DNA of 63,911 nucleotides, filler included, from Reclinomonas americana ATCC 50394 (taxonomy: Eukaryota), in the NCBI GenBank assembly GCA_048213135.1. It is 9 parts of 4 records of this genome, joined end to end, with 100 filler letters (N's around TTAATTAATTAA, not from the genome) between each part and the next. Parts side by side here need not be neighbours in the genome. Positions count along the whole stretch, not along the records: positions 43,113 to 52,653 come from PS015358.1; 8 more parts are not named here. One strand, given 5' to 3'. The notes beneath the pieces were generated by a model. It did no database searches, had not been told where the DNA came from, and saw only the letters and a program-made list of their open reading frames with translations. This document shows positions 38,206 through 60,648 of this stretch, piece by piece; position 1 is the stretch's first letter; each line of letters begins with the position of its first letter. The translations under genes and the position numbers were made by a program.

Positions 38206-38251
38206 TGGCTTCCCTCCATCCATCGGCCGGGGCTAGCCAGCCGGATAATAC

Positions 38252-38263
38252 TTAGATATCTAA
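38252..38263. promoter_or_regulatory. Palindromic operator TTAGATATCTAA between divergent oph genes
   Basis: Perfect AT-rich 12-bp palindrome; TTAG-N4-CTAA recurs at 41954-41965. Confidence 0.6.
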
Positions 38264-38320
38264 TCCTCACATTAGTCTGGATGCAAGCTCCTGTCGAGCG
38301 GGGGCAGGCTGAGGGTGAAA

Positions 38321-39280: not shown

Positions 39281-39289
39281 GGAACGGCG

Positions 39290-40489: not shown

Positions 40490-40518
40490 GCCGTTCTCCC
40501 GACGGCGCAGACGCCGGC

Positions 40519-41762
40519 TCAGGCGCAGGCGGGCCGCTCCGGCGCGAAGCCCATGATGGCGGTGAAGCGCCGGCTGAAATCCGGCCAGGCTGCCGGATTG
40601 ACGATGCGCGGCGGCGCCCGGCCGTTCAACAGTTCGATCCACTGCTGTGCCGCCGAAACCGCCATCTGGCGCAGTGCCTNNNNNNNNNNNNNNNNNNNNN
40701 NNNNNNNNNNNNNNNNNNNNNNNNNNNNNNNNNNNNNNNNNNNNNNNNNNNNNNNNNNNNNNNNNNNNNNNNNNNNNNNNNNNNNNNNNNNNNNNNNNNN
40801 NNNNNNNNNNNNNNNTGTGCCGCCGAAACCGCCATCTGGCGCAGTGCCTCCTCGGTGATGCCGGCCGTATGCGGCGTCGCGAGGACATTGTCGAAAGCCA
40901 GCAGCGGGTGGTCCAGCGGCGGCGGCTCCTTCTGGAACACGTCGATGCCGGCTCCCGCGATGCGCCGCTCGCGCAAGGCCGCGGCGAGCGCCTCTTCGTC
41001 ATGGATTCCGCCGCGAGCGGTGTTGATGAAATAGGCGGTCTGCTTCATGAGCGCGAACTCCGACGCGCCCAGCATGTTGAGCGTTTGCTTCGAGCGCGGG
41101 CAGTGAACGGAGACGTAGTCGCTGCTGCGCAGGAGCTCGCCGAGATCGACCTTGCGTCCATGGCGGCGCGCGATCTCATCGGCATCGAGATGGGGATCGC
41201 AGGCCAGCACCGTCATGCCGAACAGCCCGTGGCAGAGTTCGGCGAAGCGGCGGCCGATCGTGCCGATGCCGATGATGCCGACCGTCTTGCCGTGGATGTC
41301 GTTGCCTTGCAGGGCATAGCGGTCGATTGCAGCGCCCGGCCGGCGCAGCAGCTTGTCGGCGAGCCCGATGCGCTTGGACAGGGCGAGCATCAGCCCCAGC
41401 GCGTGCTCGGCCACCGCCTCGGTATTGGTTCCGCCCTGGTTGCAGACCAGAACGCCGGCCGCCGTGCAGGCATCGACGTCGATATAGTCGTAGCCCGCGC
41501 CGGTCGAGCTCATCGCCAGCAGATTCGGACAGCGCGCGATCAGCGCCGCATCGCCGAACCAGGGTTCGCGCAGCTCGGTGCGTGCCTGGACCTGATAGCC
41601 ATGGGCGCCGGCCATGATCTGCCAGTTGCGGGCTTCCGGCGTGGCGTAGTCGAGCTTGACCAGCTCGAGGTCGTCGCGGTCGCGCAGCATGGTCTCGGCT
41701 ATGGAGTCGACCCAGCTGTCGAAGAAGACGAGCCGCGGCCTGTTGGTCGAAATGCCTGTCAT
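40519..41762 (-). CDS. D-2-hydroxyacid dehydrogenase (SerA-like); internal false gap
   Basis: GAGYDYID, GIIGIGTIG, INTARGG, TPHTAG. A 34-nt sequence is duplicated on both sides of gap 40680-40815. Confidence 0.88.
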
Positions 41763-41975
41763 GATCCGTCCGTCCGGGAGCTAGGCCGCATCTGCGGCGG
41801 TTCCAGTGAAGAATACGCCGCTCGATCCGCAGGAAGCCGGGATTGAGCGCGAAGCCGCAGCATGGGCGCCCGCCTGCCCGTCCGTGCTGAGGGGCACCGA
41901 CGCTTCGACCGGGAGCTTGGCCGCGAGGCGATTGCCATTCTCCGGAATGTCGCTTAGTTTTCTAACTAATAAAAG

Positions 41976-43012
41976 ATGGAAACGGCGCTGGCGAGCAGGA
42001 GGAGAGCATTGAGAATCTTGCTGAGCCTACTCGTCGGGCTGGGAATCGTCGCGGCGACATCGGTGGCCGCCGAAGGAACCAAACAGCTTCATGTCGCGAT
42101 CGTCTCGCGAACGATATTTTATCTCCCTGTCTGGCTGGCAGTGGAGAAAGGCTACTTCAAGGACGAGGGGCTCGACGTTCGCATCGACGTCTTCGACAAT
42201 GCCGAGAAAATCAACGGCGCCCTGCGTGAGAACGCCGTCCAAATCGCCGTCTCGACGCCCGAGAGCATCATCGTCGACGCGCTCAAGGGCGGCAGTTTGC
42301 GAATGGTCGCCGGGAACGCCGGTCGGCTGCCGCACTATGTGATCGCGCGCCCGGAGATCCGTTCCATCGCGGATCTGCGCGGCAAGACGATCGGCGTGCT
42401 GTCGAACGAGGAAGGCACCACGCATCTCGTGCCTGAAGTGACACGCAGCGCGGGCCTCCGGTCCTCCGACTACACGGTGAAGGCTGTGGGCGGCGCGCCG
42501 ACGCGCTGGCGGCTATTGCGTTCGGGCGAGATCGACGCCGGCCTTCAGCCGTTCCCGCTGAGCTACGAGGCTGAGGCTGCCGGCTTCAGCAATCTCGGCC
42601 CCTTGGCGAATTTCGTGCCCGACTGGCAGTTCACGAGCGTCAATGTCGACCTGCGCTGGGCGGAGCGGCATCGGGCGGAACTCGTCGGCGCCCTGCGCGC
42701 CCTGCAGCGAGGGCTCGATGCGATCGCCGGGGATCCCGCGGCCGCGGTCAAGGTCGCGGCGCGCGAGCTCCAAACCGACGAGAAGCTCGCCGAGCGCGCC
42801 ATCCGGGATACTGCCAAGCTGGGGATATTGACGCCGAAGATGGAGATCTCCGCCGCAGGCACGAGGCGGGTCCATCAGGCATTGATCGCGGCCGGGCTCG
42901 TCCGGGACGAGCCGTTCGGCCTCGAACCGCGTTTCCGATGCGCGGTTTCTGTCAGGAAAGCCGCCGATGAACGAGCCGGCGCGATCCCGGAGTTCCTCCG
43001 GCCAGGGACGAG
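41976..43012 (+). CDS. ABC substrate-binding protein (NMT1/SsuA-like); 3' end unreliable
   Basis: Signal peptide, LAVEKGYFKDEGLDV, DLRGKTIGV. Confidence 0.82.
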
Positions 43013-43262
43013 NNNNNNNNNNNNNNNNNNNNNNNNNNNNNNNNNNNNNNNNNNNNTTAATTAATTAANNNNNNNNNNNNNNNNNNNNNNNNNNNNNNNN
43101 NNNNNNNNNNNNACGCACCGGTTCGCGGGCTGTCGCGCACAGCCCTGGCCAGATGACGGATCGCAACCGTGAAGCCGTTCTGCCGCCGCCTTGAGAGAGA
43201 CTGCGCCGATCCCCGCCGGCCGGTGCCGGCGGCTCTGCGCAACTTCAGGTGGGAGGACTCGT

Positions 43263-44078
43263 TTGGCCAATGATCTCGAGATACGCGGCGTTTCGAAGCG
43301 CTATGGCGATCCGCCCGGCGGGTTGCTGGCGGTCAGCGACATCAGCCTGAATGTGCGGACGGGCGAATTCGTCTCGATCATCGGGCCGAGCGGCTGCGGC
43401 AAGTCGACCCTGTTCGGCATCATCGGTGGGCTCCTTCCCGACTACGAAGGCGAGGTGCGCGTCGGAGGGCGGCGTCATGTCGGGACGCACAAGGACATCG
43501 GCATCGTCTTTCAGGAAGAATCCACCCTGCCTTGGCGGACCGTGCTGGCCAATGTCGCGCTGCCCTTGGAGATCCAGGGGGTCCCGCGAGCGGAGCGCGA
43601 GGAGCGCGCGCGCCATTATATCGAGCTCGTCGGCCTGACCGGCTTCGAGAACAGCCGCCCTGTCGAACTGTCCGGCGGCATGCGGCAGCGGACGGCGATC
43701 GCGCGCACCCTGGCCTTCCAGCCAAAGGTGCTGCTGATGGACGAGCCCTTCGGCGCGCTTGACGAGCAGACGCGGCTGCTGCTCGGCGACCGGGTGCTCG
43801 CCATCCACAAGGAGCTGAAACAGACGACCTTGCTGATCACCCACAACATCACCGAGGCGGTCCAGCTCAGCGATCGGGTGGTGGTGATGTCCTATCGGCC
43901 GGGGCGTGTGCTGCGGATCGTCGACATCGACCTGCCGCGGCCGCGCAGCTCCGACAGCGTCACCGACGAGCGTTTCGGGCGCTACGTCGCCGAGATCTGG
44001 GGCGACCTCCGCGCGGAGGCGAGCCGCGGCATGAAGGAAGCCGAGGCGTTACGGGGAAGCGGCCGAAGAGCCGGCTGA
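43263..44078 (+). CDS. ABC transporter ATPase (SsuB/TauB type)
   Basis: GGAGG RBS with TTG start; [25 protein letters not shown]. Confidence 0.9.
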   Translation: MANDLEIRGVSKRYGDPPGGLLAVSDISLNVRTGEFVSIIGPSGCGKSTLFGIIGGLLPDYEGEVRVGGRRHVGTHKDIGIVFQEESTLPWRTVLANVALPLEIQGVPRAEREERARHYIELVGLTGFENSRPVELSGGMRQRTAIARTLAFQPKVLLMDEPFGALDEQTRLLLGDRVLAIHKELKQTTLLITHNITEAVQLSDRVVVMSYRPGRVLRIVDIDLPRPRSSDSVTDERFGRYVAEIWGDLRAEASRGMKEAEALRGSGRRAG

Positions 44079-44097
44079 ATCGAGAGGAGAGAAACGT

Positions 44098-45072
44098 ATG
44101 TCAGGACTGCCGATACGATCGTTCACGCCGTCGCGTCGCAGCGTGCTCCAGGGGGCGGGCGCCGCGCTCATCGCGTCGCGGCCGGCCAGGGCAGCCGACA
44201 GGATGCGCATCGTCAGCAGCCAAAAGGGCTTCTGGGATACGACGCTCATCCTGTTCGGCCAGCAGAAGGGCATCTTCGCCGATAACGGGCTCGAATTCGA
44301 CATCATCTGGACGGATGGCGGCGCCGACATCCAGCAATCCATCATCGCCGGGTCCACCGATTTCGGTGTGGCGCCCGGCATCCTGGGGGCGCTCAGCGCC
44401 TTCGTCAAAGGCGCCCCTGTCGCCGTCACCAACGCCGCGATGACGGGCTCGAGCGACCTGTTCTGGTATGTGCGCGCGGACAGCCCGATCCGCAGCCTCG
44501 CCGACTGCGCCGGCAAGACAGTGGCATTCTCGCGCCCGGGCGCCTCGAGCGAGCTCATTGCCGCCACCCTACTCGACCATGCCGGCGTCAAGGCCAAGCT
44601 GGTCGGCGCCGGCGGACCCGGCGCCACCCTCACCCAGGTCATGTCGGGCCAGCTCGATGTCGGCTGGTCGGCACCCACGGTCGGCCTGGCCGAAGAACGT
44701 GCCGGGCAACTGCGTGTCATCGCCCGCGGCAACGATGCCCCCGGCCTCGCCACGCAGACGGTCCGCGTCGGCATGACCAACACCCGGTTCCTGACCGAGC
44801 GGGCGGATTCGCTCCGGCGCCTTCTCAAGGGAATCCAGCAGACGATCGAATGGGCCTATTCCGGAGACGAAGCGGTGCAGATGTATGCCGATCTCAACCG
44901 CATCGATCTCGCCACCGGCCGGCAGGCGCGGGACGTCAATTATCCGAAGGCGGCGCTGGCGCTGGCCCCGATCGGCAATCTCGATCTCAGCATCGCGCAA
45001 GCCGTCAAGGACAAGCGGCTGTCCGCTCCGCTGACGCCCGAGCAGACCAGGGCCTTCACAGCCAATGTCGGC
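44098..45072 (+). CDS. ABC substrate-binding protein with Tat-like signal, 3' end in gap
   Basis: SRRSVLQG twin-arginine motif; QKGFWD; GKTVAFSRPGASS. Confidence 0.85.
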
Positions 45073-45092
45073 NNNNNNNNNNNNNNNNNNNN

Positions 45093-45588
45093 GCGCCGGC
45101 GGCTGCTGGGGCAGGCCTATGAGCCGTGGCTCGAGGCGGCTTTCGCCGCCCCGATCATCCTGCTCTATCCGCTCTTCCTGATCTTCTTCGGGCGAAGCCT
45201 GGTGACCGTGGCGGTGATGGGGTTCGTCGTGGCGGTGATCCCGGTCATCATCAAGACGCGGGAAGGAATCACCGCGGTGAGGCCGGTTCTTCACAATCTC
45301 GCGCTGTCGCTCCACATGACGCCGCTGCAAAGCCTCGCCAAGATCGTGCTGCCGGCGGCGCTTCCGACGATCTTCGTCGGTTTGCGGCTGGGATTGATCT
45401 ACGCGATGATCAACATCGTCGCGGTCGAGTTCCTCGTCGGCATCGGCGGTCTCGGCTTTGTCGTCGCCGACATGTACGACCGCTACGATATTCCCTCGAT
45501 GTATTCGGCCGTCGTCTTCGTCATTGTGCTGAGCAGCCTGTTTTTCTTGCTGATCGAGCGGGGGGAGCGATGGCTACGGCCGGTCTGA
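45093..45588 (+). CDS. ABC permease, 5' truncated
   Basis: PIILLYPLF, LPAALPTIFVGLRLG, VEFLVGIGGLG. Confidence 0.85.
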
Positions 45589-46355
45589 CTGCGTTCGCCC
45601 CGTCCCGATCCGGCGGCGTGACGGTGACCATGATCCGGATGCTGACGCTCGCCGGCCTGCTGGCCGCATATCAGGCGATCTCGTCATCGGGGCTCGTTTT
45701 CACCGGCGCCATGCCGAGCCTTTGGGCCATCGGCTCGGCGCTGCTGCGGCAGCTCGCGGATGCCGGCTTCTACGCGCATCTCGGCGTCACCGCCTATGAA
45801 GCAGGCACGGGCATCCTGATAGGCGGGAGCGTCGGCCTGCTCTGCGGGATCGCCCTGGGCGTCTCGCGACTGCTGGCCGCGGTGCTCGATCCGTGGGTGC
45901 GTGCGCTCGCCCCCGCACCCAAGATCGTTTTCCTGCCCATCCTAATGGTGCTCTTCGGAATCGATACCGGCCCGAAGATCGCGATGGCGGCGATCTCGGC
46001 TTTCTTCCCGGTGGTCGTGGCGACCTTCGGCGGCATGCGCAGCGTCAGTCCGATCTTGATCCGGGTCGTGCGCAGCTTCGACGCCTCTCTGCCGCAGCTT
46101 GTCCGGCTGGTCTATCTGCCCTCGATCGTGGTGCCCGTGCTCGGCAGCTTGCGGCTCGCCACCGGCGTGGCTCTGATCGGGGCGCTGCTGGCCGAGGTGA
46201 AGATGTCCAATCGCGGCCTGGGGTATCTGATCATCCAGGACTACAATGCTTTCCGGACGGCGGAGATGTACGCCCTGCTCATCTCCGTGTTTACCCTCGC
46301 ACTGGTCGTCAATGCAGCGCTGCGGACGTTCGGGCGCCGCTACGGTGCGGTGTGA
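45570..46355 (+). CDS. ABC permease
   Basis: PAPKIVFLPI, LLAEVKMSNRGLG. Confidence 0.88.
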   Translation: MATAGLTAFAPSRSGGVTVTMIRMLTLAGLLAAYQAISSSGLVFTGAMPSLWAIGSALLRQLADAGFYAHLGVTAYEAGTGILIGGSVGLLCGIALGVSRLLAAVLDPWVRALAPAPKIVFLPILMVLFGIDTGPKIAMAAISAFFPVVVATFGGMRSVSPILIRVVRSFDASLPQLVRLVYLPSIVVPVLGSLRLATGVALIGALLAEVKMSNRGLGYLIIQDYNAFRTAEMYALLISVFTLALVVNAALRTFGRRYGAV

Positions 46356-46418
46356 ACGATCGTTTTTCATGACGGCCCGCCTTGCGCAGACTTCCGCCTT
46401 ATCCGATTGGAAGGGACC

Positions 46419-47615
46419 ATGCCTCTCGACAACGCGATCAATATCGCGGACCTTGCTGCCCGCGCGCGACGGCGCCTGCCGCGTGTGGTCTGGGACTATC
46501 TCGACGGCGGAGCGGAGGACGAAGCGACGCTGCGCGACAATCGTGCCGCCTTCGAACGGTGGCGGCTGACGCCAAGCGTGCTGACCGGCAACAAGCAGCG
46601 CGATCAGTCGGTCGAGCTGTTCGGCAGCCGGTTCCTCGGGCCGTTCATGATCGGGCCGACCGGGCTCAACGGCCTGTTCTGGCCGGATGCGGACCTCGAA
46701 CTCGCCCGAGCCGCGGCCGATGCGGGCGTGGGTTTCGCATTGTCGACGGCATCGAACAACGCGCTCGAACAGGTGGCCGCGATCGGCGCAGGCACGCGCT
46801 GGTTCCAGCTCTACCCCTGGGGCGACGTCAGCTTCGCAAGCCGGCTGCTCGAACGCGCGCGCAACGCCGGGTATCAGGCCGTGATCGTCACCGTCGATAC
46901 GCTGACGGCCGGCAAGCGCGAGCGCGACCTGCGCAACAATTTCTCGCATGAGTTGCGCCTGACGCCCCGGGTCGTGCTCGACGGTCTCCTTCACCCCGGC
47001 TGGCTGGCCAATGTCTGGCTGAACAAAGGGATGCCGCGCTTCGAGAACCTCGCCGAGTTCCTGACGCCCGGCGCCACGGCTGCCGAGCTTGCCGACTTCA
47101 CGCGCTCGAAGCGCAATCCCGCGTTCTGCTGGGACGATATCGCACGGCTGAAGGAGCGCTGGAACGGGCCGCTGCTCGTCAAGGGAATCCTCTCCGGCGC
47201 CGATGCCCTGCGCGCCCGCGAGCACGGCGCCGACGGCGTCATCGTCTCCAACCACGGCGGTCGCCAGCTCGACGGCGCACCGGCCTCCATCGACGCCCTG
47301 CCCGAGGTGGTGCAAGCGACGGATGGTCGGATGGTCGTGCTCATGGACGGGGGCATCCGGCGCGGCTCCGACATCGTCAAGGCTGTGGCGCTCGGCGCCG
47401 ATGCCGTCCTGCTTGGGCGCGCGACTCTGTACGGCGTTGCGGCAGCGGGGCGGGCCGGGGTCGAGCGTGCGCTGGCGATACTGCGAGACGAAGTCGATCG
47501 GACCATGGCGTTGACAGGCGTGCGCACCCTCGCGGAGCTTCGCGCGAGGGACATCCTCTTCCCGCATCCGGCGTCCAGGAAGATATCCGCCCGGTCCGAA
47601 CTCGCGGCGTGCTGA
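46419..47615 (+). CDS. FMN-dependent alpha-hydroxy acid dehydrogenase, (S)-mandelate dehydrogenase MdlB-like
   Basis: DYLDGGAEDE, IGPTGLNG, LSTASN, RERDLRN, SNHGGRQLD, RRGSDIVKA. Confidence 0.85.
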   Translation: MPLDNAINIADLAARARRRLPRVVWDYLDGGAEDEATLRDNRAAFERWRLTPSVLTGNKQRDQSVELFGSRFLGPFMIGPTGLNGLFWPDADLELARAAADAGVGFALSTASNNALEQVAAIGAGTRWFQLYPWGDVSFASRLLERARNAGYQAVIVTVDTLTAGKRERDLRNNFSHELRLTPRVVLDGLLHPGWLANVWLNKGMPRFENLAEFLTPGATAAELADFTRSKRNPAFCWDDIARLKERWNGPLLVKGILSGADALRAREHGADGVIVSNHGGRQLDGAPASIDALPEVVQATDGRMVVLMDGGIRRGSDIVKAVALGADAVLLGRATLYGVAAAGRAGVERALAILRDEVDRTMALTGVRTLAELRARDILFPHPASRKISARSELAAC

Positions 47616-47716
47616 GCGCCACGATCGATGCCTCTTCCCCTCTTTGCCACGCCCGCCCGTTTCCCTCCTCATCCCGCTCGCCTGATGGCGAACCGCGTGG
47701 AAAGGTCGCCTCTCCC

Positions 47717-48643
47717 ATGACATTGCTGGCGGCGCGGCTCGGCGAGCTGTTTTCGATTCTGTCCGTCCTGGCCTTCGCCTTCGGCGGGGTCGCGATCGCC
47801 AAGGCACGCAAAAGCGGGCCGGGCGACGGAGGGGCCATTCTCTCGGTGGGTTTCACCGCGCTGCTTTCTGCAGTCCTCTGGCTGAGCATGGCGCGGGGTT
47901 CTGAGAACCTGGTCGGAAGACCTGGCGCGCTCGCAGGTCTCGCATGGTTCGCGCTTTCGGGACTTCTCGCGACGGCCCTTGCCCGCAGCCTCTATTTCCT
48001 GTCGGTACGGGATCTCGGCGCGATCCGCGGTGCCGCGGTCAAGCGTGCCATTCCCTTTTTCTCCGTGCTGTTCGGCGTCGTCTTTCTCGGCGAGATCCTG
48101 ACCTCGGCCAAGCTAGGCGGCCTCCTGCTGATCGCGATCAGCGTCGCCGCCCTGGTGGCGGTCGATCTCGCGGGCAGCGGAAAGTTTGCGGCGCCGGCCA
48201 CGGACAAGATCGAACCGCTGGGCTATGTCTGGGGAACGGCTTCGGGTCTCTGTTACGCCTCGGCCTACGTCGCGCGTAAATTCGGCCTCAACCTCATTCC
48301 GGACGGAGCGTTGGGTACCTTCGTCGGAGCCATGGCAGCCATGAGTTACTATATGCTGGCGGCGCTCGTCAGCCGACATAGTCGCAGGACGATCGTCACG
48401 GCGCTGATCGCGCGCAATGTCTGGGGCTTAGTCGCGGCGGTATGCTTCGCAGCGGGACAGATCGCCAACTTTTATGCGATACAGTACACCGCGATCTCGA
48501 CCGTCGGTGCGATCCAGTCGCTCGAAGTTTTCGTTTCGATGCTGATAGCCGCGTTCCTCCTACGAACCGAACGCGCTCCGAATCTTATCACCATCGCCGC
48601 AGCATTGGTCGCAACTGCAGGGGTGCTGCTGGTCGTCGCCTGA
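47717..48643 (+). CDS. DMT/EamA-family transporter
   Basis: About 10 hydrophobic helices in two repeats; FSVLFGVVFLGE. Confidence 0.82.
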   Translation: MTLLAARLGELFSILSVLAFAFGGVAIAKARKSGPGDGGAILSVGFTALLSAVLWLSMARGSENLVGRPGALAGLAWFALSGLLATALARSLYFLSVRDLGAIRGAAVKRAIPFFSVLFGVVFLGEILTSAKLGGLLLIAISVAALVAVDLAGSGKFAAPATDKIEPLGYVWGTASGLCYASAYVARKFGLNLIPDGALGTFVGAMAAMSYYMLAALVSRHSRRTIVTALIARNVWGLVAAVCFAAGQIANFYAIQYTAISTVGAIQSLEVFVSMLIAAFLLRTERAPNLITIAAALVATAGVLLVVA

Positions 48644-48680
48644 CGCCAGCTGCACGATTAACCGCATATCCAATCGATGC

Positions 48681-48887
48681 TTACCGCCTGTTAGGCGGTT
48701 CTTCCGGCGGGGGATTGTTCGCGGCGGCCGACAGGATCGCAATGGTATCCTGCTCGGCGGCCGCGGCGCTCTTGTAGCGCGGTGCCGTGGTCACCAGCGG
48801 CTTTTCGGCGTCGGCCGGCAGGTAGATCTCGATGGCGAAGCGGCCGGAGGCACGATCCTCGACTGGTTCAATACGGATCGTCGGCAT
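48681..48887 (-). CDS. Small hypothetical protein (68 aa)
   Basis: Strong GGAGG RBS before ATG; coding-like composition. Confidence 0.6.
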   Translation of the reverse strand: MPTIRIEPVEDRASGRFAIEIYLPADAEKPLVTTAPRYKSAAAAEQDTIAILSAAANNPPPEEPPNRR

Positions 48888-49071
48888 GTCAAATCCTCCC
48901 TATTCTCATGAGCGCGAAAGTCTCCTCTGGTATTTTTAGGATATTCGCAGGCCGGTGGTCCAAGACAAAAGCGCTTTGTCAGCCAAGCTTCATGCTCATG
49001 GTCGCTTTCGGCCGTCGCGGCCATCAGGCTTTCGATCGTAGCGGAGCAAACCGGTGTCGAACCCGCTCGCA

Positions 49072-49142
49072 GATGCTCCAGGCCTTTGATTTTGCACCGG
49101 CTCTCCCGAAAACCGCGTTACGCTTCTCGGGCCATGCTCTAG
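49072..49142 (-). repeat. CTAG-anchored palindromic intergenic repeat
   Basis: The minus strand reads CTAGAGCATGGCCCGAGAAGCGTAACGCGGTTTTCGGGAGAGCCGGTGC, similar to 36143-36193. Confidence 0.6.
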
Positions 49143-49606
49143 CTGGCCGACACCAACCGCAATGGCGCGCGCGAGGCCTCGTTGTTGGATTCGACGAGCC
49201 TGGCCAATATGCTCAGGAAGGCCTGCCGGTCATCGGGCGGCAGCGGGGCCAGGATTCGCATCTGGGCTCGCTCGACCAAGGGCTCGGCCTGCACGAGAAC
49301 CGCCTCACCCTCGGGCGTGAGCCGCAGAACCTTGACGCGCCTGTCGTTGTGATTGCCCGAACGCAGGATGAGCCGTTTCGTCTCGAGACGCTCCAGCACG
49401 TTGGCGAGCGTGGAGCGATCGAAAGCGACCAGCGCGGACAACCGCGTCGCGTCGATCCCCGGATTGTCGCGGATGGTGACGAGCGCGGCATATTGCACCG
49501 GCGTCATGTCCAGGGACGCGCATTCGTCGAGGAAGATCGAGACTGCGATCTGCTGGGCGCGCCTGATCAGATGACCGGGCATCGAATAGAGATTCTGGCT
49601 CGCCAT
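49139..49606 (-). CDS. MarR-family regulator (MobR/PcaV-like)
   Basis: PGHLIRRAQQI, TPVQYAAL, DRST, DRRVKVLRLT. Confidence 0.9.
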   Translation of the reverse strand: MASQNLYSMPGHLIRRAQQIAVSIFLDECASLDMTPVQYAALVTIRDNPGIDATRLSALVAFDRSTLANVLERLETKRLILRSGNHNDRRVKVLRLTPEGEAVLVQAEPLVERAQMRILAPLPPDDRQAFLSILARLVESNNEASRAPLRLVSAS

Positions 49607-49696
49607 TCTATGATCTTCGCCTCGCCTTCATCCCGCAACGGCGGCAACCCATGCCAGGAGCGACATCCCGCGGCAAACAGAGCCGGTCTTCCTCTT

Positions 49697-51624
49697 TCAC
49701 CTCGCCGGTCCGATCTCCTCCGGGACCAGCATGAAGGACGCGAAGAAGGCCGAGAGCGCTGCCCCGTCTGCGAGCGGCAGGATCTCCGCGACATACTGGT
49801 CTGGCCTGACGACGACGACGCAGCCGGCCTCGCGGCGGACGCCGCGCAGATCGAAGATGTCCTGCCCCGAGCGCGTATCGGCGCAGAACAGCTTTTCATA
49901 GTCCCATAGACCGTAGCGTCCCTTCGTCGGCCGCAGAAGGGCCGGGACGCGGGCCATATCGACCTCGCGATGGTTCTGCTGCAGCACCGCCAGCACGTCG
50001 ATCACGGCGTCGACATCCTGTCCCGGCGGCGTATGGCGCCGGACGGGCGACGATCCGTCGGCATCGAGGAAACGGCAGAGCTTCATCAGCTCCGATCCGG
50101 CCTCGAAAGGGTCGCCCGCATCGGCGAAGGCGACCAGGCGCCAGCGTCCGTCCGCCTTCGCACAATGGCCCAGTTCCACCGGCTTTGCGTCCGCCAGCCG
50201 TACGACCGGGGCCGAATGCAGCCGCATGCCGAGCGGAAAGCCGCTTGCCAGACCCTGGTGCCGGCCATCGCCGCAGATCAGCGAGGGCTTGTAGCGGACG
50301 GCCGTGCCGGCTGTGAACCGCCCCTGCTTGACGAAATAGCGCTGGAACTCGGCAGGATCGACGGCATCATCCTGGTTGCCGGCCCCCGTTTTGGGACGGG
50401 CGCTGAACATCCGGGCGAACTCGCGGTCGAAATCGATCAGCTCCTTTGCGACGGCATGGCGCTCGATCGAATATGTGTCGAGCAGCCGCGGCGAGGCCTG
50501 TCCCCGGATGACGGCCGCCAGCTTCCAGCCGAGATTGAAGGCATCGCCCATCGAGACGTTCATGCCCTGCCCCGCCTTGGGGCTGTGGGTGTGACAGGCA
50601 TCCCCGGCGATAAAGACGCGCGGCCGGCGATCCTCCCCGGCCGGGACGTCGTCGAACTTGTCGCATAACCGCTGGCCGATCTCGTAGACCGACCACCAGG
50701 CGATCTCCTTCACATCGAGGGAATAAGGACGGATGATGCGCCGGGCTGCCGCAACGAGCCGGTCCGCGGTGATCGCGCGGGCCGAGACCCGCTCGTTTTC
50801 GGCGAGCTTGTCGAGCTCGATATAGAAGCGCACGAGATAGCCGCCCTCGCGCGGGATGATCAGCATGCTGCCTTCCTCGGCGGAGTGGATGGCGCTCTTC
50901 AGGCGGNNNNNNNNNNNNNNNNNNNNNNNNNNNNNNNNNNNNNNNNNNNNNNNNNNNNNNNNNNNNNNNNNNNNNNNNNNNNNNNNNNNNNNNNNNNNNN
51001 NNNNNNNNNNNNNNNNNNNNNNNNNNNNNNNNNNNNNNNNNNNNNNNNNNNNNNNNNNNNNNNNNNNNNNNNNNNNNNNNNNNNNNNNNNNNNNNNNNNN
51101 NNNNNNNNNNNNNNNNNNTCTCGAGATCGACAAAGCGCAACCCATAAGTGCGGCTCGAGGCCGAGCGGCGCATGGCGCATGGTCTCGAGGAGAAAATCAT
51201 GCACGCGCGCCTGATTGAGGATGACATGCGGAAACTCGGACAGGCCGTCCTCGGTATCCTGGATGCGGCCGTGACGCATGATCTTGCCGGCATCCGCCTC
51301 ATCGGGCTTCCAGAAGGTCGTTTCGTTAACCCAGTAGGCCTCCTTCACGACACGTTCGGCAAAGCCGAAGGCCTCGAACATCTCCATCGTGCGGCAGGCG
51401 ATGCCGTCCGCCTGCCCGATCTGGAGCGGTCCGGACTTCTGCTCGACGATGCAGACGCTGAGATCGGGAAAGGCGGCGAGCTGGGCCGCCAGGACCAGCC
51501 CCGCCGGGCCGCAGCCGACGATCAGGACATCGACCTCCCGCGGCAGGCTCCGGTCGCCTCCGGACGCCGGGATCGTCCGCACCGCCGGATCCCCCGGCCT
51601 GAAACCATCGAGATGAAATTGCAC
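49697..51624 (-). CDS. FAD monooxygenase, 3-hydroxybenzoate 4-hydroxylase (MobA)/phenol hydroxylase family; gap 50907-51118
   Basis: MQFHLDGFRPGDP, VGCGPAGL, GQADGIACRT, LSEFPHVILNQARVHD, GDACHTHSPKAGQGMN, VVVRPDQYVA. Confidence 0.88.
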
Positions 51625-51657
51625 GGGCGCTTCCAGAATCTCGGAACAGTTTGCGGT

Positions 51658-52449
51658 TCAGCCGGGCACGGCCTCGCAGCGAATGCGCGCTCTCTCGAGC
51701 CAGAGATCCCAGGGCCGCTGCATCTGACCCTCGACCTTGTCGACGCAGGCGCGGCACTCGCCCTCGGTCAGGAAGGTGACCTCGCCGAGCTGCATCGCCT
51801 GCAACTGGTAGCGTGCGTTCAGCTCCGCATAGACCGCGCGATAGACGGCACGCTTGATCGAATCGCCGACGACGGTCGAACCGTGCCCCCGCATCAGCAC
51901 GATATCGCTTGAAGAGAAATGCTGGGCCAGCGCCGCGCCGATGTCGCCATTGCTGATCAGCAGATCCGTCGCCTCGCCGGCCACCTCCCGGATCTCGAAG
52001 ACCGGTGCGCCGGGCCCGATGAAGCCCGCCATATGGAACAGCGGACGCAGATGCGCGCCCTTGACGACGCTGAGCGGCACGATCGAATGCGAGTGGCTAT
52101 GGACCACCGCCTGGACGTCCGGCCGTGCCTTGAAGATCTCGGAATGGATGAAGCGTTCGAGATAGACCTTGCGCCCCTTCGCGTTCACCGCCTCGCCATC
52201 GAGCGTGAACTCCACCAGATCGTCGCGAGTGACCCTTCCCGGCGCCATGTTGCGGGCGAGGAAGAAACGGTCCGGCCGCTTGTCGTGCCGGACGCTGACA
52301 TGGCCGAAGGCATCGACGACACCCTGGTCGAACAGGATGTGATTGGCGGCCACCAGCTCGTCGAGCAAGGCAGGCGAAACGTCGCTCGACGCATCACCGA
52401 CGTCAGGAACCGCAACCGCGGCCTGGCTTTCAGACTCGTTGCGACACAT
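51658..52449 (-). CDS. Class II aldolase/adducin-fold protein of the HMPD-decarboxylase-like subgroup
   Basis: LVAANHIL..QGVVDAFGHVSVR, YLERFIHSEIFKARPDV, HSHS, LRPLFH, EATDLL, LMRGHG, RPWDLW. Confidence 0.85.
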   Translation of the reverse strand: MCRNESESQAAVAVPDVGDASSDVSPALLDELVAANHILFDQGVVDAFGHVSVRHDKRPDRFFLARNMAPGRVTRDDLVEFTLDGEAVNAKGRKVYLERFIHSEIFKARPDVQAVVHSHSHSIVPLSVVKGAHLRPLFHMAGFIGPGAPVFEIREVAGEATDLLISNGDIGAALAQHFSSSDIVLMRGHGSTVVGDSIKRAVYRAVYAELNARYQLQAMQLGEVTFLTEGECRACVDKVEGQMQRPWDLWLERARIRCEAVPG

Positions 52450-52518
52450 GGCCCGTCCTCCCTTGGAAGCTGTTCCGCCTTGTCTCTCCGTAACGGCCTC
52501 AGCGGAGGCTGAAGAATA

Positions 52519-52546
52519 TGAGAGCACTGAATATCAGCATACAGAT
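52519..52546. promoter_or_regulatory. Putative tandem MarR operators upstream of the aldolase-monooxygenase-marR operon
   Basis: TGAGAGCACTGA and ATCAGCATACAGAT, each one mismatch from a TCAG-N4-CTGA palindrome. Confidence 0.45.
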
Positions 52547-52970
52547 CAATTACAAACCTTATCGGCGCATTTTCGAGCAGAGCGGAACGCCTCCGCGTAA
52601 AAACGACGAATAAGATGCTTGGGGCGCTTTGACGGAGGTACGGAACGCAATGGNNNNNNNNNNNNNNNNNNNNNNNNNNNNNNNNNNNNNNNNNNNNTTA
52701 ATTAATTAANNNNNNNNNNNNNNNNNNNNNNNNNNNNNNNNNNNNNNNNNNNNCTCAACCAGGTCGGCGATACCCGGACCTTCCTTGCCCGCTTGTCGAT
52801 CCGGAAATGACCGCGGTGCTGAGCATGGTATTTGCCTACAACAAGCCGACCTCGTTCCTGACGCGGGAATTTGTGGGCGAGCTGCGCGCCCGCATCAAAT
52901 CGTTTTCGGAAGAGCAGGCCCGCGTGATCGCGTCGTTCGAGCGGCGATACTGACCCGGGCGGACTCCGGG

Positions 52971-55076
52971 TCAGGCGACGCGCCGCAGATGCGCCTCCTC
53001 CGCCGCGGCCGTCCGGAATTGCGCGACCAATCCGTGAAGCCGGTCGATCTGGACGGCGAGAGCCACTGCCGATGCCGAGCTCTGCTCGGCGAGCGCGGCG
53101 TTCTGCTGGGTCATCTCATCCATATGCGCCACGACCTGGCTCACCTCGTCGATTCCGCTCGCCTGCTCGTCGCAGGCGACCGAGATCTGGGACACGTTTC
53201 CGACGACCCGATCGGACGCCTCGACGATCCGCGCGAGCGTGTCGCCGGCCTGACGCACGAGCGCCACGCCCTGCTCGACCTCGCGCGTCGACGAGGAAAT
53301 CAGCGTGCCGATGTCCTTGGCGGCGTCCGCAGCGCGCTGCGCCAGCGTCCGCACTTCGGTTGCAACCACCGCGAAACCGCGGCCGGCATCGCCGGCGCGG
53401 GCGGCCTCGACCGCAGCGTTGAGGGCAAGCAGGTTCGTCTGGAACGCGATTTCCTCGATGACATTGGTGATTGCCGCCACGCGGCCAGCGGTCGTTTCGA
53501 TCTGTGACATGGCGGTGACGGCCTGGCCGATGATCGTGCCTCCCTCCGCCGCGACCGAGCGCGCCGCTTCTGCATCGGCGACCACGAGTTTGGAGGAGCG
53601 GGCCGTCGATTTCACGGAAGCGGCCAGCTGCTCCGTCGTTGCTGCTGTCTCCTCCAGGGAAGCGGCCTGCTGCTCCGTGCGCTGCGCCAGATCATCGGCG
53701 CCAGTCTTGATCTCGGTCGAGGAGACCTGCACCTCCTGCGCCGTCCTCTGAATCGTCGCCACCGCGGTGCTCAGCCTGTTCGCGGTGCGGTTGATGGCCG
53801 TCTTCAACTGATCGAGCCGCCCGCGGTAATCACGGTTCACATCCTGGACGAGATCACCTTCCGCGATGGCTTTCAGCACCCGCTCGAAATCGCCGGTGGC
53901 TTCGTCGACGACGGCATTGATCCGGTTGATGCCATCGGCGAGAGCGCGCAGNNNNNNNNNNNNNNNNNNNNCCGCCATGCGGCCGATCTCGTCGGAACGG
54001 TCGGCAAACGGGACGGCTGTGTCGAGGGAGCCGTCCGCAATCTCCGTCATCGAAGCCGCAAGGCGGCCGAACAGCGAGCGGATCACGCGGCTCACCCGCA
54101 AAGCCAGCCCCACCGCAAGCAGGATGACGACGACCGATGCCGCCCCGTAAAGCAGGAAGCTGCGATAGCTCGAGTCGAGCAGTTCCGCGGTCTGCACCGA
54201 TAAGCTGTTGCGCATCTCCTCGATCTGTTTCAGCCAGAAGGCCCGGCGCGCCTGGTCGGCCTTCGTCCAGCCGGGTGCATCCTTGGGATCGAGCTTGTCG
54301 TAGCCGGCATCGAGCAGCAGCGGCCGCACGCGGTTGATCAGCTGATAGTCGGCGGATCCGAGGAAATCCTTGTATTGGGCGATGTGCTCCGGCCGCGCGA
54401 ACGCCTCGAACTGCCGCCCGAAGATCTGCTGGAGCTCCACGCCCCGGTGCATGACGCGAAACAGCGACTGGCTCAGCTTGCCCGTCTGGAATGCGATCTC
54501 GCCGCGGCCGCCTTCGTTAAGACTGCCGGTGCTGATCTCGAGGGCCGCATGCAGGGCCAGGATCGGCCGGGCGATCTCGCTGTTGTCGACGGCGCCGGCG
54601 ATACGTCCCACGAGCTCATTGGCGAGATTGCTGCTGTTCTGCAGGAATGCGCCCATCTGCGAGCGATCCGTCTCGCGGCGCATGGCCTTCTGCCGGATCT
54701 CGCCGAGGAGCTGGCGCTGCTCGAGTATCGTCCGCAACAACCCGGCCGTTTCGGGATTGGGGATCTGCGCGGCCCCGGCAGCGAGCTCGATGCGCTGGAA
54801 GGCCTCGTCCGTCAGGGGCCATTGCGTTTCCATCTTGGCGCGCGCCTCGGCCGTACCCTGAGCGAGATAGGGATAGGCGGCCCTGCCTTCGTTCGGGATC
54901 GCGGTCGCCGAGAAGATCGTGGTCGCGTCCACGAGCGCCTGCAGATGCGAGGCTCTCCGGACCTCCTGATAGGTGCGGAAACTCTGGTAGGCGAGGATCG
55001 CGCCAAAGCACACCAGTGCCAGGAGAGGCACGAGCGTCAGGCAATGAAGCAGATTGCCAAGTCGGATTTTGTGCAT
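52971..55076 (-). CDS. Methyl-accepting chemotaxis protein (middle lost in gap)
   Basis: Two TM helices around a helical periplasmic domain; [34 protein letters not shown]. Confidence 0.93.
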
Positions 55077-55703
55077 TTTGTCCGCCCCGTTCAGAGGCGA
55101 GGATCGTTGCTTAGAAACCTAAATTTTCTCTGTGCCGCCGATGGGCGCCTTCCCACAAGCGACCTCCTCCACAGCCGCGCCCAAAGGCTCAGAACGCCGA
55201 ACGCAGCCGGCTGCCAGGATGCCGGCGGCGCGACGGCGAACCTGCTTACGCCGTTGAGCTCATTACTTTTTCTGTCGCGCAACATCGCGATTGGTAGGAC
55301 GATCGAGCGGCCGGGACAGGGACGAGCCACCCAATCGAGACAAACGACATCTTTCAGACCAAACAATTCAGTTTGACAGATATTTTCTCGCCCGGAGTCA
55401 CCGCTTCTGCACGGAAGTGAAGCGTCATCGCCGCGCTCGCTTCCGGTCATTTTTCCAGTTCGATCTCGCAAGCGTCCCAACCGGCGCACGATCGCCGACT
55501 CTTGAGAAAAACCCCTTCTTTCGGAGCGGATGGCGGGGAAACGCGCCTGAAATCACGGATCACGGCAACGGGAAGCGCGAGGTGGCTGGGAGGCGATAAC
55601 GCCCGCACCTCACGACGAGACCGCTCGGGTTCTCGTCCCGCTTGCTGGATCTGAAGCGCAGTTTCAGGAAGGCCCGAAAGCTTCGATAGCTAAGGAAATG
55701 ACC

Positions 55704-55755
55704 TTGACAAGCCGGCCGAGGGGCGAATGGTATTCGTTATGACGGTATACCATTT
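55704..55755 (+). promoter_or_regulatory. Sigma70-like promoter with GntR-type operator upstream of the amidase
   Basis: TTGACA at 55704, TGGTAT 18 nt later, palindrome GGTATACC at 55744-55751. Confidence 0.5.
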
Positions 55756-55801
55756 GGCCGCAATGAACGGTCGGGATGATAACGAGGGGAATACGCAAGA
55801 A

Positions 55802-56296
55802 ATGGTCCAACCCTGCGACCTCACGGCTTCCGAAGCCCGCTTCCTGATCGGCGCCAAACAGCTCTCCCCGGTCGAACTGCTCACGTCTTGCCTCGCCCGG
55901 ATCGAGGACGCCAACGAAGCCGTGAACGGTGTCGTCGCCATCGACGAGGAAGGGGCGCGGGCCGCCGCCGAAAGGGCTGAAAAGGCAGTCCTGGCCGGCG
56001 AGGAGTTGGGCCCGCTGCATGGCCTGCCGATCGGCATCAAAGATCTCAACGATACGGCCGGCTTGCGCACGACCTACGGCTCGCGGCTCTATGAGCAGCA
56101 TATGCCCGCCGAGGACGAGCATCTGGTCGCCAATCTGCGCCGCAAGGGCGCCATCGTCTTTGCGAAGACCAACACTCCCGAATGGGGCGCCGGCGGCAAC
56201 ACCTTCAATCCCGTCTATGGCGTCAGCGGCAACCCGTTCGATGTGAGCCTGACCTGCGGCGGCTCCTCCGGCGGCTCCGCGATCGCGCTGTCGCTC
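55802..56296 (+). CDS. Amidase signature family protein, partial
   Basis: LGPLHGLPIGIKD, KTNTPE, GGSSGGSA. Confidence 0.92.
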
Positions 56297-56396: not shown

Positions 56397-56877
56397 GCGT
56401 GCGCACCAGCAGGTCCGTATCGCCGAATTCGTCGCGGCTGTCCCAGATGGGCACCCGCTGCCCGATCACCGCGCCGAGATGGCAGACCGGGACGATCTCG
56501 ACGCCGGCGATGCAAAAGGCGACGACCGCGGGCGCGTGATTGTGACAGACGGACATGACATCCGGGCGCGCCTTGTAGATGGCGCTGTGGATCACCCGCT
56601 CGGCGTATAGTTTCGCGCCGGTATTGCGCACCGGGCGTCCCTCGAGATCGAGCTCGACCAGATCCGCCCTCTCCACCAGAGCCGGGCTGCGCGAGCGGGA
56701 GATGAAATAGCGTTCTGGGTCAAGCGGGTGGCGGGCGCTCACATGCCCGAATCCGTCCAGGACGCCTTCGCGCGCGAGAATCCGGTTGGCCGCGACCAGA
56801 TCGTCCAGGACGTTTTCCACGTCCCCGTCGCGGCACGGCTCGTCCGCGCCAGCGTCAGAAGCGAGCGCTACGCTCAT
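56397..56877 (-). CDS. Second class II aldolase/adducin-fold (HMPD-decarboxylase-like) protein, partial
   Basis: LVAANRILAREGVLDGFGHVSARHP, YAERVIHSAIYKARPDV, HNH, GDTDLL. Confidence 0.85.
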
Positions 56878-57128
56878 CTGCAACTTTCTCCTCCCCGAAG
56901 CCGATGGCGGCTCCGCATGGCCGGGCAGCGCCTGGGCGGGGCACAGATCGGCCGTGATCGTTCTTGTCGGCCCAATTTGCTCCCTCGCGAGAGGAGGCAC
57001 AAAGGCTGTTTCCACCTGGCAGCCAGCGAAAAACAGCTCGCCAGGGCCGCAGGTCATGTGGCATCGCTTCCCGGGCGCCGCATGCTCCACCAGTCCCGGC
57101 GCAACCTCTCAAAGGAAGGGCACCGATC

Positions 57129-59675: not shown

Positions 59676-59856
59676 AGACCTTATCTAATCAGACAATCTA
59701 ATCACGGCTGAATTCCACGATAGCATGTGATGTCGCGAGCGAAGCCGTAAGACGACGCCGAACTTCCCCATTGCTTCCCTGTACCGATCAGCCACGAATT
59801 GATCGGTGACGGCATCGATCGAAAACTCGCAGTGGGCTTCGCCAGGAGAAGGTCGT

Positions 59857-60648
59857 ATGAAGATAATCGCCGCAACACTTTTTCTCGCCGCAACGGCCGT
59901 CCCTTCATTCGCGCAGAATGCAGACGGAAGCCAGAATGCGCCATCGAGGACGCCTCTCCTGACCGACAGCAATTTCGAGGCCGTGTCGCCGGCGCTCGAC
60001 CGCTATATTCGAGAAGCGATCCTCGGCGATCTGTGGCAGCGGCCGCAGCTGTCGCCGCGAGACCGCAGCGTCGTGACACTGGCGGTTCTGATCTCCCGCA
60101 ACCAAACCGTCGAGTTGCCGTTCCATCTTCGCCGGGCCTTAGACAATGGCGTGAAGCCCCGCGAGATCTCCGAGATCATCACGCATCTCGCCTTCTATTC
60201 CGGCCTCGGAAACGCCACTTCCGTCATCCTTCTGGCGAAGGAGGCCTTCACGGAGCGCGGCATCGGCGCTGAGCAGCTTCCGGCGGCATCGCCGCAACTC
60301 CTGCCGATCGACCAGGCGGCCGAAGCGCAACGTGCCGCGGGCGTCGAGCGAAATGTCGGTCCCGTGTCGCCTGGCCTCGTGCAGTTCACCGGCGACCTCC
60401 TCTTCAAGAATCTCTGGCTGCGCCCCGATCTCGCACCGCGAGACCGCAGCCTGATCACGGTGGCAAGCCTCATCTCCAACGGGCATGTCGGCCAGATCTC
60501 GTTCCACCTCAACAAAGCCATGGACAACGGATTGACTCGCGAACAGGTAGGCGAAGTCATCGCGCATGTCGCCTTCTATGCCGGCTGGCCGAATGCTTTC
60601 TCGGCGGTTCCGGTCGTGGCCGAGGTCTTCAAGGGCCGCCCGGGCTGA
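59857..60648 (+). CDS. Tandem-domain carboxymuconolactone decarboxylase (CMD) family protein with signal peptide
   Basis: LWQRPQLSPRDRS..HL..ALDNG..HLAFYSG occurs twice; MKIIAATLFLAATAVPSFA signal; no CxxC. Confidence 0.88.
   Translation: MKIIAATLFLAATAVPSFAQNADGSQNAPSRTPLLTDSNFEAVSPALDRYIREAILGDLWQRPQLSPRDRSVVTLAVLISRNQTVELPFHLRRALDNGVKPREISEIITHLAFYSGLGNATSVILLAKEAFTERGIGAEQLPAASPQLLPIDQAAEAQRAAGVERNVGPVSPGLVQFTGDLLFKNLWLRPDLAPRDRSLITVASLISNGHVGQISFHLNKAMDNGLTREQVGEVIAHVAFYAGWPNAFSAVPVVAEVFKGRPG

Follow-up and report, generated by a model that had tools for sequence, protein, structure and literature searches.

The window analysed here, a stretch of 63,911 nucleotides from the assembly GCA_048213135.1 of Reclinomonas americana ATCC 50394, consists of draft scaffolds strung together by N44-TTAATTAATTAA-N44 linkers. 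The scaffold at 43113-52653 carries three head-to-tail genes, close together on the minus strand, which encode a class II aldolase-fold protein, the 3-hydroxybenzoate hydroxylase MobA and a MarR-family regulator, and which are an operon of a Bosea strain. The aldolase-fold protein resembles the decarboxylase of 3-hydroxy-2-methylpyridine-4,5-dicarboxylate (HMPDC), and its orthologues recur beside the genes of two different 3-hydroxybenzoate hydroxylases. From these sequence data it can be held with middling confidence that the protein is a decarboxylase yielding 3-hydroxybenzoate; 3-hydroxyphthalate as its specific substrate, put forward by analogy, is a more tentative proposal. The fold, the reaction type and the MobA/MarR pair are already known; what is new is that the decarboxylase-like gene is paired with them, what it probably produces and how widely the two are linked.

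The operon and its gene products

A preliminary description of this DNA had reported three co-oriented, tightly spaced genes for an aldolase-fold protein, MobA and MarR. The arrangement is borne out and the identities hold by matches in Pfam, NCBIfam and the Protein Data Bank (PDB); the operon end given there (52546) is too far upstream. Repairs and flanks were taken from G001, a near-identical uncultured Bosea genome that was the closest among the genomes compared.

51658-52449, minus strand: class II aldolase-fold gene (263 amino acids plus stop; Pfam Aldolase_II), HMPDC-decarboxylase-like, proposed to encode a 3-hydroxybenzoate-forming decarboxylase
49697-51624, minus strand: mobA, very probably encoding 3-hydroxybenzoate 4-hydroxylase; GTG start, 33 nt past the stop of the aldolase-fold gene; broken by a gap
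50907-51118: scaffold gap of 212 N inside mobA, where G001 has 232 bases and the frame is open
49139-49606, minus strand: MarR-family regulator (155 amino acids), 90 nt past the mobA stop, last gene of the operon
52527-52537, minus strand: inverted repeat CTGAtatTCAG (11 nt, 4-3-4), 80-89 nt upstream of the start of the aldolase-fold gene

The aldolase-fold gene probably starts with the ATG at 52449, which has a GGGAGGA sequence six bases ahead of it. The resulting length of 263 amino acids agrees with annotated homologues, among them an NCBI-annotated 263-residue protein of Bosea sp. 47.2.35, which have 258-265 amino acids and cover 98-100% of the protein; a GTG start at 52527, assigned mechanically, lies too far upstream. 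The protein matches the Pfam profile PF00596 (Aldolase_II) over positions 2-183 of 183, with an E-value of 7.1e-31 and 108 bits against a cut-off of 22.2. Among proteins of solved structure its top relative by far is the HMPDC decarboxylase Mlr6791 (HMPDdc) of Mesorhizobium loti (2z7b; E 7e-57, 196 bits), the alignment spanning residues 25-255 with about 42% identity as counted from the printed alignment. The remaining solved class II aldolase-fold matches, including pyruvic oxime dioxygenases (8ix6, 8iqa and 8il8, identified through PMC11841055), NovR, fuculose-phosphate aldolases and adducin, reach at most 45 bits, so that the specific likeness to HMPDC decarboxylase noted earlier holds. With regard to NCBIfam, the top model is that of the 3,4-dihydroxyphthalate 2-decarboxylase PhtC (NF053537), and since its score of 76.6 bits falls short of the cut-off of 200, the protein is not classifiable as PhtC. 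No HMPDdc-specific model was found among the NCBIfam matches of the protein, and in the ESM Atlas it matched generically named class II aldolase clusters only.

Six motifs of the protein, DAFGHVSVR (residues 46-54), YLERFIHSEI (96-105), HSHSH (117-121), LRPLFH (134-139), TDL (161-163) and RPWDLW (245-250), all line up with the corresponding stretches of 2z7b. Across the 80 orthologues described below, His117, His119, His121 and His189, together with 97 of the 263 positions, are at least 97% conserved. His117, His119 and His189 align with His residues of 2z7b and are candidate metal ligands, their equivalence to the triad of the fuculose-phosphate aldolase FucA being drawn by analogy from PMC11841055. 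Paralogues with 40-43% identity exist in the same genomes as the orthologues. One such second class II aldolase-fold gene, whose product is 42% identical to that of the operon, lies in the window at 56398-57090 (minus strand), where it is cut by a scaffold start. It is intact at G001:C35:46775-47470, about 20 kb from the operon in that genome, adjoins an SsuA/NMT1-type ABC transporter and a LysR gene, and groups with the paralogue of locus L013 on the tree described below.

MobA is very probably a 3-hydroxybenzoate 4-hydroxylase. Its N-terminal piece in the window scores 264 bits on the NCBIfam model PRK08294 and its C-terminal piece 616.7 bits, the latter above the cut-off of 560. The intact G001 copy is an open frame of 648 amino acids that has both the FAD_binding_3 and the C-terminal Phe_hydrox_dim domains and matches the Comamonas testosteroni 3-hydroxybenzoate 4-hydroxylase 2dkh over residues 1-638 (E 1.5e-274, 916 bits), with the phenol 2-monooxygenases 1pn0, 1foh and 8r2u far under this score at 382-403 bits. 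The assignment seems safe, since an enzyme with only 49-52% identity to the Comamonas one still proved to be a 3-hydroxybenzoate 4-hydroxylase, according to PMC13653839.

The frames of mobA on the two sides of the 212-N gap are mismatched in the window. The gap edge lies 30 nt from position 51148, where the window has one base too many. Contigs of 4 of 4 public runs (four studies) lack this base, which is most likely an assembly error, the alternative being a strain-specific frameshift. Over 9,309 aligned bases, the scaffold and contig C35 of G001 show 3 differences only: a substitution at 47838 and single-base insertions in the window at 48933 and 51148. A second run of 20 N (45073-45092) has a counterpart of 259 bases in G001, and as the lengths disagree in both cases (212 against 232, 20 against 259), the N runs are read as scaffold gaps of undefined size.

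DNA near-identical to 51119-52653 (91-96% of sampled words) occurs in sequencing runs from fish gut, indoor, soil, lagoon, bioreactor and other samples, 20 of the 24 runs listed containing at least part of this stretch (12 studies), so that the Bosea lineage appears to occur in many kinds of sample. A soil metatranscriptome contig spans the whole stretch, contigs from RNA libraries being no proof of transcription.

Conserved linkage to 3-hydroxybenzoate genes

A scan of one genome per species gave 304 stretches with relatives of the aldolase-fold protein, and the best 80 of the 304 (64-100% identity) were taken as orthologue loci, with flanks of up to 10 kb as the contigs allowed. Genes were called, their proteins clustered and the recurrent clusters annotated, and partner genes were located by tblastn. 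In this neighbourhood survey the linkage of aldolase-fold gene and mobA is kept: mobA is found in 37 of the 80 loci, in 31 of them in full, at most 250 bp downstream and on the same strand, in two (L012 and L064) directly downstream and cut by a contig end, and in four (L014, L018, L033 and L060) elsewhere in the locus. Another context, present in 15 of the 80 loci, is formed by a 3-hydroxybenzoate 6-monooxygenase (3HB6H) and/or a gentisate 1,2-dioxygenase-like bicupin. The representative 6-hydroxylase scores 562 bits on NF006021 (cut-off 459) and the representative bicupin 270 bits, under its cut-off of 442. These gentisate-type loci often add a maleylpyruvate-isomerase-like glutathione S-transferase, a hydrolase of the FAH family and an aromatic-acid/H+ symporter, and in 6 of the 15 a distance of 59-88 bp separates the end of the 6-hydroxylase gene from the aldolase-fold gene downstream of it. 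Whole-genome searches found the same 6-hydroxylase adjacency in G643, G671 and G579, which belong to one genus.

On a quick maximum-likelihood tree of all 80 orthologues and three paralogues, with no rows dropped, the orthologues form one group on a long branch (support 98), apart from the 40-43% paralogues. The mobA and gentisate contexts are interspersed on this tree, even among close Acetobacteraceae sequences, the minimum number of label changes being at least 7 for MobA and 10 for gentisate. The linkage is spread over Bosea, Rhizobiaceae, Acetobacteraceae, Labrys, Brucella and unclassified Alphaproteobacteria. Among the carriers is the Bosea minatitlanensis type strain (L008), whose orthologue has 97% identity. 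Minimal modules consist of TctC and MarR genes with the aldolase-fold gene and MobA (16 Bosea loci), or of the series MarR-3HB6H-aldolase-fold gene-MFS in Acetobacteraceae. The PDB matches of the linked TctC proteins held no pointer to a ligand, as terephthalate-, adipate- and amino-acid-binding TctC proteins scored alike, and those of the linked Peripla_BP_6 proteins were structural-genomics entries, again with no ligand pointer. Each of the eight compared genomes whose homologue reaches 59% identity or more encodes MobA or an above-cut-off 3HB6H, a count that leaves the base rate aside and is no test.

It is very improbable that the protein serves vitamin B6 catabolism as an authentic HMPDC decarboxylase, or that it is a sugar-phosphate aldolase or epimerase functionally unconnected to mobA. 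Its top PDB match is indeed a B6-pathway enzyme, the two agreeing in fold (class II aldolase), in the motifs and in the His triad, and public names point in both directions: one 72% homologue is labelled HMPDC decarboxylase, and another source labels many homologues ribulose-5-phosphate 4-epimerase/fuculose-1-phosphate aldolase. In the B6 pathway, decarboxylation by HMPDdc is followed by a monooxygenase dependent on flavin adenine dinucleotide (FAD) that acts on the product. Here, however, identity to 2z7b is only about 42%, the partner is a 648-residue MobA or a 3-hydroxybenzoate 6-hydroxylase, these two being the only FAD monooxygenases among the annotated neighbours in the 80 loci, and a benzene derivative, not a pyridine, is presumably the substrate. 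No pyridoxine-degradation context was seen in the window, where the neighbours are MobA, MarR, an EamA transporter and a dehydrogenase dependent on flavin mononucleotide (FMN). As for the sugar phosphates, the NCBIfam models of such aldolases and epimerases score 19-60 bits against cut-offs of 250-400, and immediate adjacency to mobA in 31 of the 80 loci, across several families, is not chance.

The third gene of the operon matches the MarR profile PF01047 (E 4.3e-10, 39.8 bits against a cut-off of 24.6) and reached no NCBIfam equivalog, the best being the Saro_0803 family with 65.6 bits against a cut-off of 200. A MarR homologue lies at most 8 kb away in 45 of the 80 orthologue loci. MobR of C. 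testosteroni is a regulator of the MarR type. It is recorded as the regulator of mobA in the title of Yoshida et al. 2007, as cited in PMC3616709. Compared with the Comamonas mobA-mobR system, whose MobA is matched, the operon here has an extra first gene, that of the aldolase fold, and its regulator is co-oriented and last.

Of the MarR-like palindromes that had been placed upstream of the operon, one stands: the 4-3-4 repeat CTGAtatTCAG occurs once per locus in all seven loci of the clade of the window (L007-L013), including L013 with its diverged flanks, and the 73 other loci have no copy upstream of the gene. A repeat finder, on the other hand, reported no inverted repeat in G001, either ahead of the operon or in the interval from mobA to marR. 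CTGAtatTCAG is a candidate MarR operator and part of the putative promoter region, and other clades presumably use other operator sites. A consensus scan detected neither a minus-strand promoter of the sigma-70 type nor a terminator following marR.

The proposed reaction and its alternatives

The product of the first gene would be a divalent-metal-dependent, non-oxidative decarboxylase of the HMPDC-decarboxylase or PhtC kind with a His triad, in which the metal would bind both the ring hydroxyl and the carboxylate next to it, and the carboxyl in the ortho position to this hydroxyl would be released as CO2. The substrate would be a hydroxylated benzenedicarboxylate and the product 3-hydroxybenzoate, which MobA would then hydroxylate at C4 to protocatechuate; the MarR protein would probably repress the operon at CTGAtatTCAG until an aromatic acid binds to it. 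HMPDdc is Mn(II)-dependent, according to PMC11841055, and the fold has a further precedent in DhbB, an enzyme of the class II aldolase type which, according to PMC6362003, decarboxylates 2-hydroxy-3-carboxymuconate semialdehyde.

The suggestion that the product of the first enzyme is the substrate of MobA gains support from the 15 of 80 loci that pair the orthologue with a 3-hydroxybenzoate 6-hydroxylase and/or gentisate genes, since 3-hydroxybenzoate is the substrate common to MobA and the 6-hydroxylase and therefore seems the most likely product. Decarboxylation would be the simplest mechanism because the only close characterised relative removes a carboxyl ortho to a ring hydroxyl, and a one-step conversion of an imported carboxylate fits the minimal modules, which consist of a regulator, a carboxylate transporter, the aldolase-fold gene and a 3-hydroxybenzoate hydroxylase. 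With regard to the substrate, 3-hydroxyphthalate, 2-hydroxyterephthalate and 4-hydroxyphthalate all give 3-hydroxybenzoate on losing the carboxyl ortho or para to the hydroxyl. Among them, 3-hydroxyphthalate is the closest analogue, as it would repeat the hydroxyl/carboxyl/carboxyl pattern of HMPDC and 3,4-dihydroxyphthalate; as the one specific substrate it is possible rather than probable.

Other genes recur around the orthologues: an aldehyde dehydrogenase in 18 of the 80 loci, a benzoylformate-decarboxylase-like enzyme dependent on thiamine pyrophosphate (TPP) within 8 kb in 9 of the 80, and GMC oxidoreductase and hydantoinase A/B genes. This set, with the FMN-dependent hydroxy-acid dehydrogenase of the window, may supply the substrate with its second carboxyl, as a parallel to vitamin B6 breakdown. 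It is conceivable, if speculative, that the decarboxylase completes a fairly widespread catabolic route, so far undescribed, that would be the benzene-series counterpart of vitamin B6 degradation. In it, 6-substituted salicylates would be converted to 3-hydroxyphthalate, which the enzyme would turn into 3-hydroxybenzoate for the protocatechuate or the gentisate route. The starting aromatics of such a route would have adjacent hydroxyl, carboxyl and carbon side chain, as in phthalide, isocoumarin or alkylsalicylate polyketide residues, and the side chain would be oxidised to a carboxyl by GMC oxidase or hydroxy-acid dehydrogenase, TPP decarboxylase and aldehyde dehydrogenase.

In the Labrys loci L042, L044, L052 and L058, as well as in L038 and L050, hydantoinase A/B-type genes, caprolactamase- or acetophenone-carboxylase-like, stand with an aldehyde dehydrogenase by the aldolase-fold gene; these loci are of the gentisate type. 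The GMC oxidoreductase additionally recurs in four Labrys loci, a pattern that points to an unassigned upper pathway. Directly beside the orthologue, a cytoplasmic NMT1- or periplasmic-binding-protein (PBP)-like protein is encoded at L033:8837-9940 and L078:10425-11417, and the same kind occurs in the phthalate modules of L015 and L051. The adjacency of two non-oxidative decarboxylase candidates hints at a stepwise trimming of a polycarboxylated phenol.

Several observations weigh against a decarboxylase that supplies 3-hydroxybenzoate. Neither hydroxylase context is present in 28 of the 80 loci, 8 of which have less than 3 kb on one side, and about 20 full-length loci have no 3-hydroxybenzoate gene in reach, their neighbours including TAXI-TRAP transporters, hydantoinase, ornithine cyclodeaminase and radical SAM genes. 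The orthologue is rare: among sampled genomes, 64% identity or more is reached in 3 of 401 at class level and in 4 of 301 at order level, where one further genome has 63%. In 12 loci of 43-58% homologues there were no 3-hydroxybenzoate genes nearby. In addition, no natural source of 3-hydroxyphthalate was documented in this analysis, and no sequence feature examined separates a decarboxylase from a same-fold oxygenase, as the His triad is common to both. Furthermore, the FMN-dependent dehydrogenase, the aldehyde dehydrogenase and the TPP enzyme could together make 3-hydroxybenzoate from a compound of the 3-hydroxymandelate type with no ring decarboxylation at all. Two of the genomes with no 3-hydroxybenzoate gene at the locus, G128 and G282, encode an above-cut-off 6-hydroxylase elsewhere. 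Phylogenetic profiling had too little power to help: a homologue reaching E 1e-30 is present in 18 of the 401 class-level genomes, and one reaching E 1e-80 in 6 of the 301 order-level ones. As the 43-58% homologues adjoin unrelated genes, the wider family is functionally diverse, and these 12 loci have no bearing on the substrate.

The shared triad and the recurring genes raise the alternative of an O2-dependent Fe(II) enzyme of the CloR/NovR or pyruvic oxime dioxygenase type, which would oxidatively decarboxylate 3-hydroxyphenylpyruvate or 3-hydroxymandelate towards 3-hydroxybenzoate in a mandelate-type pathway. CloR performs two oxidative decarboxylations. Pyruvic oxime dioxygenase shares the His triad, according to PMC11841055, and NovR (9ryg) is among the PDB matches. 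An enzyme of this kind would account equally well for the pairing with both 3-hydroxybenzoate hydroxylases, and it stays alive as an explanation because the recurring dehydrogenase and TPP genes (FMN dehydrogenase in the window, L007-L011 and L016; TPP enzyme in 9 and aldehyde dehydrogenase in 18 of the 80 loci) are readable as a mandelate-type route. The clusters contain no recurrent aminotransferase, however, and NovR and the pyruvic oxime dioxygenases score 40-44 bits against 196 for 2z7b, which leaves an oxygenase unlikely.

DhbB/CmtD, NovR/CloR and pyruvic oxime dioxygenase share the fold and decarboxylate or oxygenate carboxylated enols and aromatics, but they are distant (at most 45 bits where structures exist) and stand in other gene contexts. 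The activity of DhbB on a ring-fission product suggests a different place for the enzyme, after or beside the hydroxylases, where it would act on protocatechuate, gentisate, 2,3-dihydroxybenzoate or, like DhbB/CmtD, a carboxylated ring-fission product. In one public source, some homologues carry the name 'HCOMODA/2-hydroxy-3-carboxy-muconic semialdehyde decarboxylase', and a 44% homologue adjoins a LigB-type dioxygenase (L097). Such a role is also improbable: no extradiol dioxygenase is found among the recurrent neighbours of the orthologue group, the gentisate-type loci have a full set of dioxygenase, isomerase and hydrolase that consumes gentisate itself, and it is more economical to suppose an enzyme that acts on the substrate common to both hydroxylases than one that handles their differing products.

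Neighbouring genes and wider significance

The genes around the operon that bear on its setting are the following.

47609-48643, plus strand: EamA/DMT transporter, convergent neighbour (Pfam EamA, 1.1e-18)
46407-47615, plus strand: FMN-dependent alpha-hydroxy-acid dehydrogenase of a mandelate-dehydrogenase-like family (Pfam FMN_dh, 9.5e-139)
38315-39277, plus strand: phthalate-dioxygenase-reductase (PDR)-like gene
39290-40486, plus strand: Gfo/Idh/MocA dihydrodiol-dehydrogenase-like gene
38115-38223, minus strand: first ~109 nt of an oxygenase gene

An EamA homologue adjoins mobA/marR in L007-L011, L016 and L024, and the transporter is possibly linked to the operon; the FMN-dependent dehydrogenase is kept in L007-L011 and L016. 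In G001, where the window scaffolds 38115-43012, 43113-52653 and 52754-56296 form one contiguous stretch, the upstream order from the operon is EamA, FMN-dependent dehydrogenase, NMT1-type ABC transporter, D-2-hydroxy-acid dehydrogenase, Gfo/Idh/MocA and reductase, and beyond these lies a divergent operon of Rieske oxygenase, aldehyde dehydrogenase and TPP enzyme. The oxygenase (L087:11192-12544) matches the C. testosteroni phthalate dioxygenase 7fjl, identified as such through PMC8649396, with an E-value of 9.6e-190. Two NMT1-like genes, at 41976-43010 and 44098-45072, were considered as cytoplasmic decarboxylases and rejected; their N-termini look like signal peptides by eye, so both are read as binding proteins.

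The phthalate genes on another scaffold, which had been taken to fit the theme of the operon, are thus present and contiguous with it in G001. Any role of theirs in feeding it is hypothetical, and they form a separate module. This module has its own putative decarboxylase, a cytoplasmic PBP-like protein (G001:C35:3003-3986) that is 60% identical to that of the L015 module and belongs to what is presumably the classical 4,5-dihydroxyphthalate decarboxylase family, and only 4 of the 80 loci (L015, L016, L024 and L051) have the oxygenase trio at 10 kb or less from the orthologue. For these reasons the phthalate genes are read as the marker of an aromatic-acid island.

The same genes raise the question of whether the aldolase-fold protein could serve the phthalate dioxygenase pathway next to it as a dihydroxyphthalate decarboxylase, with a PhtC-like role and MobA merely adjacent. 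PhtC has the same fold as the operon protein, cleaves off the phthalate carboxyl that stands ortho to a ring hydroxyl and is at home in Gram-positive pht operons with a 3,4-dioxygenase. It is the top-scoring NCBIfam model, and in G001 the phthalate 4,5-dioxygenase-like oxygenase, the reductase and the dihydrodiol dehydrogenase lie 9-14 kb off on the same contig. Nevertheless, the PhtC score is under half of its cut-off, PhtC makes protocatechuate directly, so that MobA would be unneeded, the four loci with the trio are few, and the module has the separate PBP-like gene; moreover, 4,5-dihydroxyphthalate is without a hydroxyl ortho to a carboxyl, and the pairing with MobA and 3HB6H is left unexplained. 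A role of this kind is decidedly improbable.

The stretch G001:C35:3003-13598 (L087), corresponding to 38115-40486 of the window, looks like a complete phthalate 4,5-dioxygenase module. The oxygenase being co-operonic with an aldehyde dehydrogenase and a TPP enzyme suggests a feed of the 2-carboxyphenylglyoxylate or 2-carboxybenzaldehyde type into phthalate. A side route from phthalate dihydrodiol through 4-hydroxyphthalate to 3-hydroxybenzoate is conceivable. A paper of 1978 is said to have reported m-hydroxybenzoate as the product from 4-hydroxyphthalate, and the 4,5-dihydroxyphthalate decarboxylase of C. testosteroni NH1000 is presumably of the PBP-like family. According to the review PMC13040137 the C. 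testosteroni enzyme acts on 4-hydroxyphthalate as well, with unspecific activity. That turnover differs from the reaction proposed for the operon in being a side activity of an unrelated family with no mobA link.

The G001 contig with the operon also carries, some 20-25 kb away from it, genes of the protocatechuate branch of the beta-ketoadipate pathway: a PcaC/PcaD-like carboxymuconolactone decarboxylase at 59806-60645 of the window (plus strand) and a PcaB-like cycloisomerase, just under the cut-offs, at L006:18235-19629 (minus strand). The Pca-type genes nearby are consistent with protocatechuate as a product for consumption. Directly upstream of the operon, at 52971-55076 (minus strand), lies the gene of a methyl-accepting chemotaxis protein with NIT sensor and HAMP domains (759 amino acids in G001), which is not conserved by the operon in other clades.

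To our knowledge, few class II aldolase-fold aromatic decarboxylases have been described, namely HMPDdc, PhtC and DhbB/CmtD, and 3-hydroxybenzoate catabolism is usually drawn from 3-hydroxybenzoate itself onward. In the open-access literature (PMC Creative Commons and bioRxiv, with subscription journals outside this scope), no paper was found that links the class II aldolase fold with 3-hydroxybenzoate or describes a hydroxyphthalate or hydroxyterephthalate decarboxylase, and HMPDdc appeared only as a structural comparison. If the proposed decarboxylation of a hydroxylated benzenedicarboxylate to 3-hydroxybenzoate is true, the protocatechuate and gentisate funnels would both gain a feeder branch, and a function could be assigned to a conserved protein group, with relatives in 304 stretches, whose public names are generic or given by transfer. 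The enzyme would then be a cofactor-light decarboxylase, possibly useful for hydroxy acids derived from phthalate or terephthalate.

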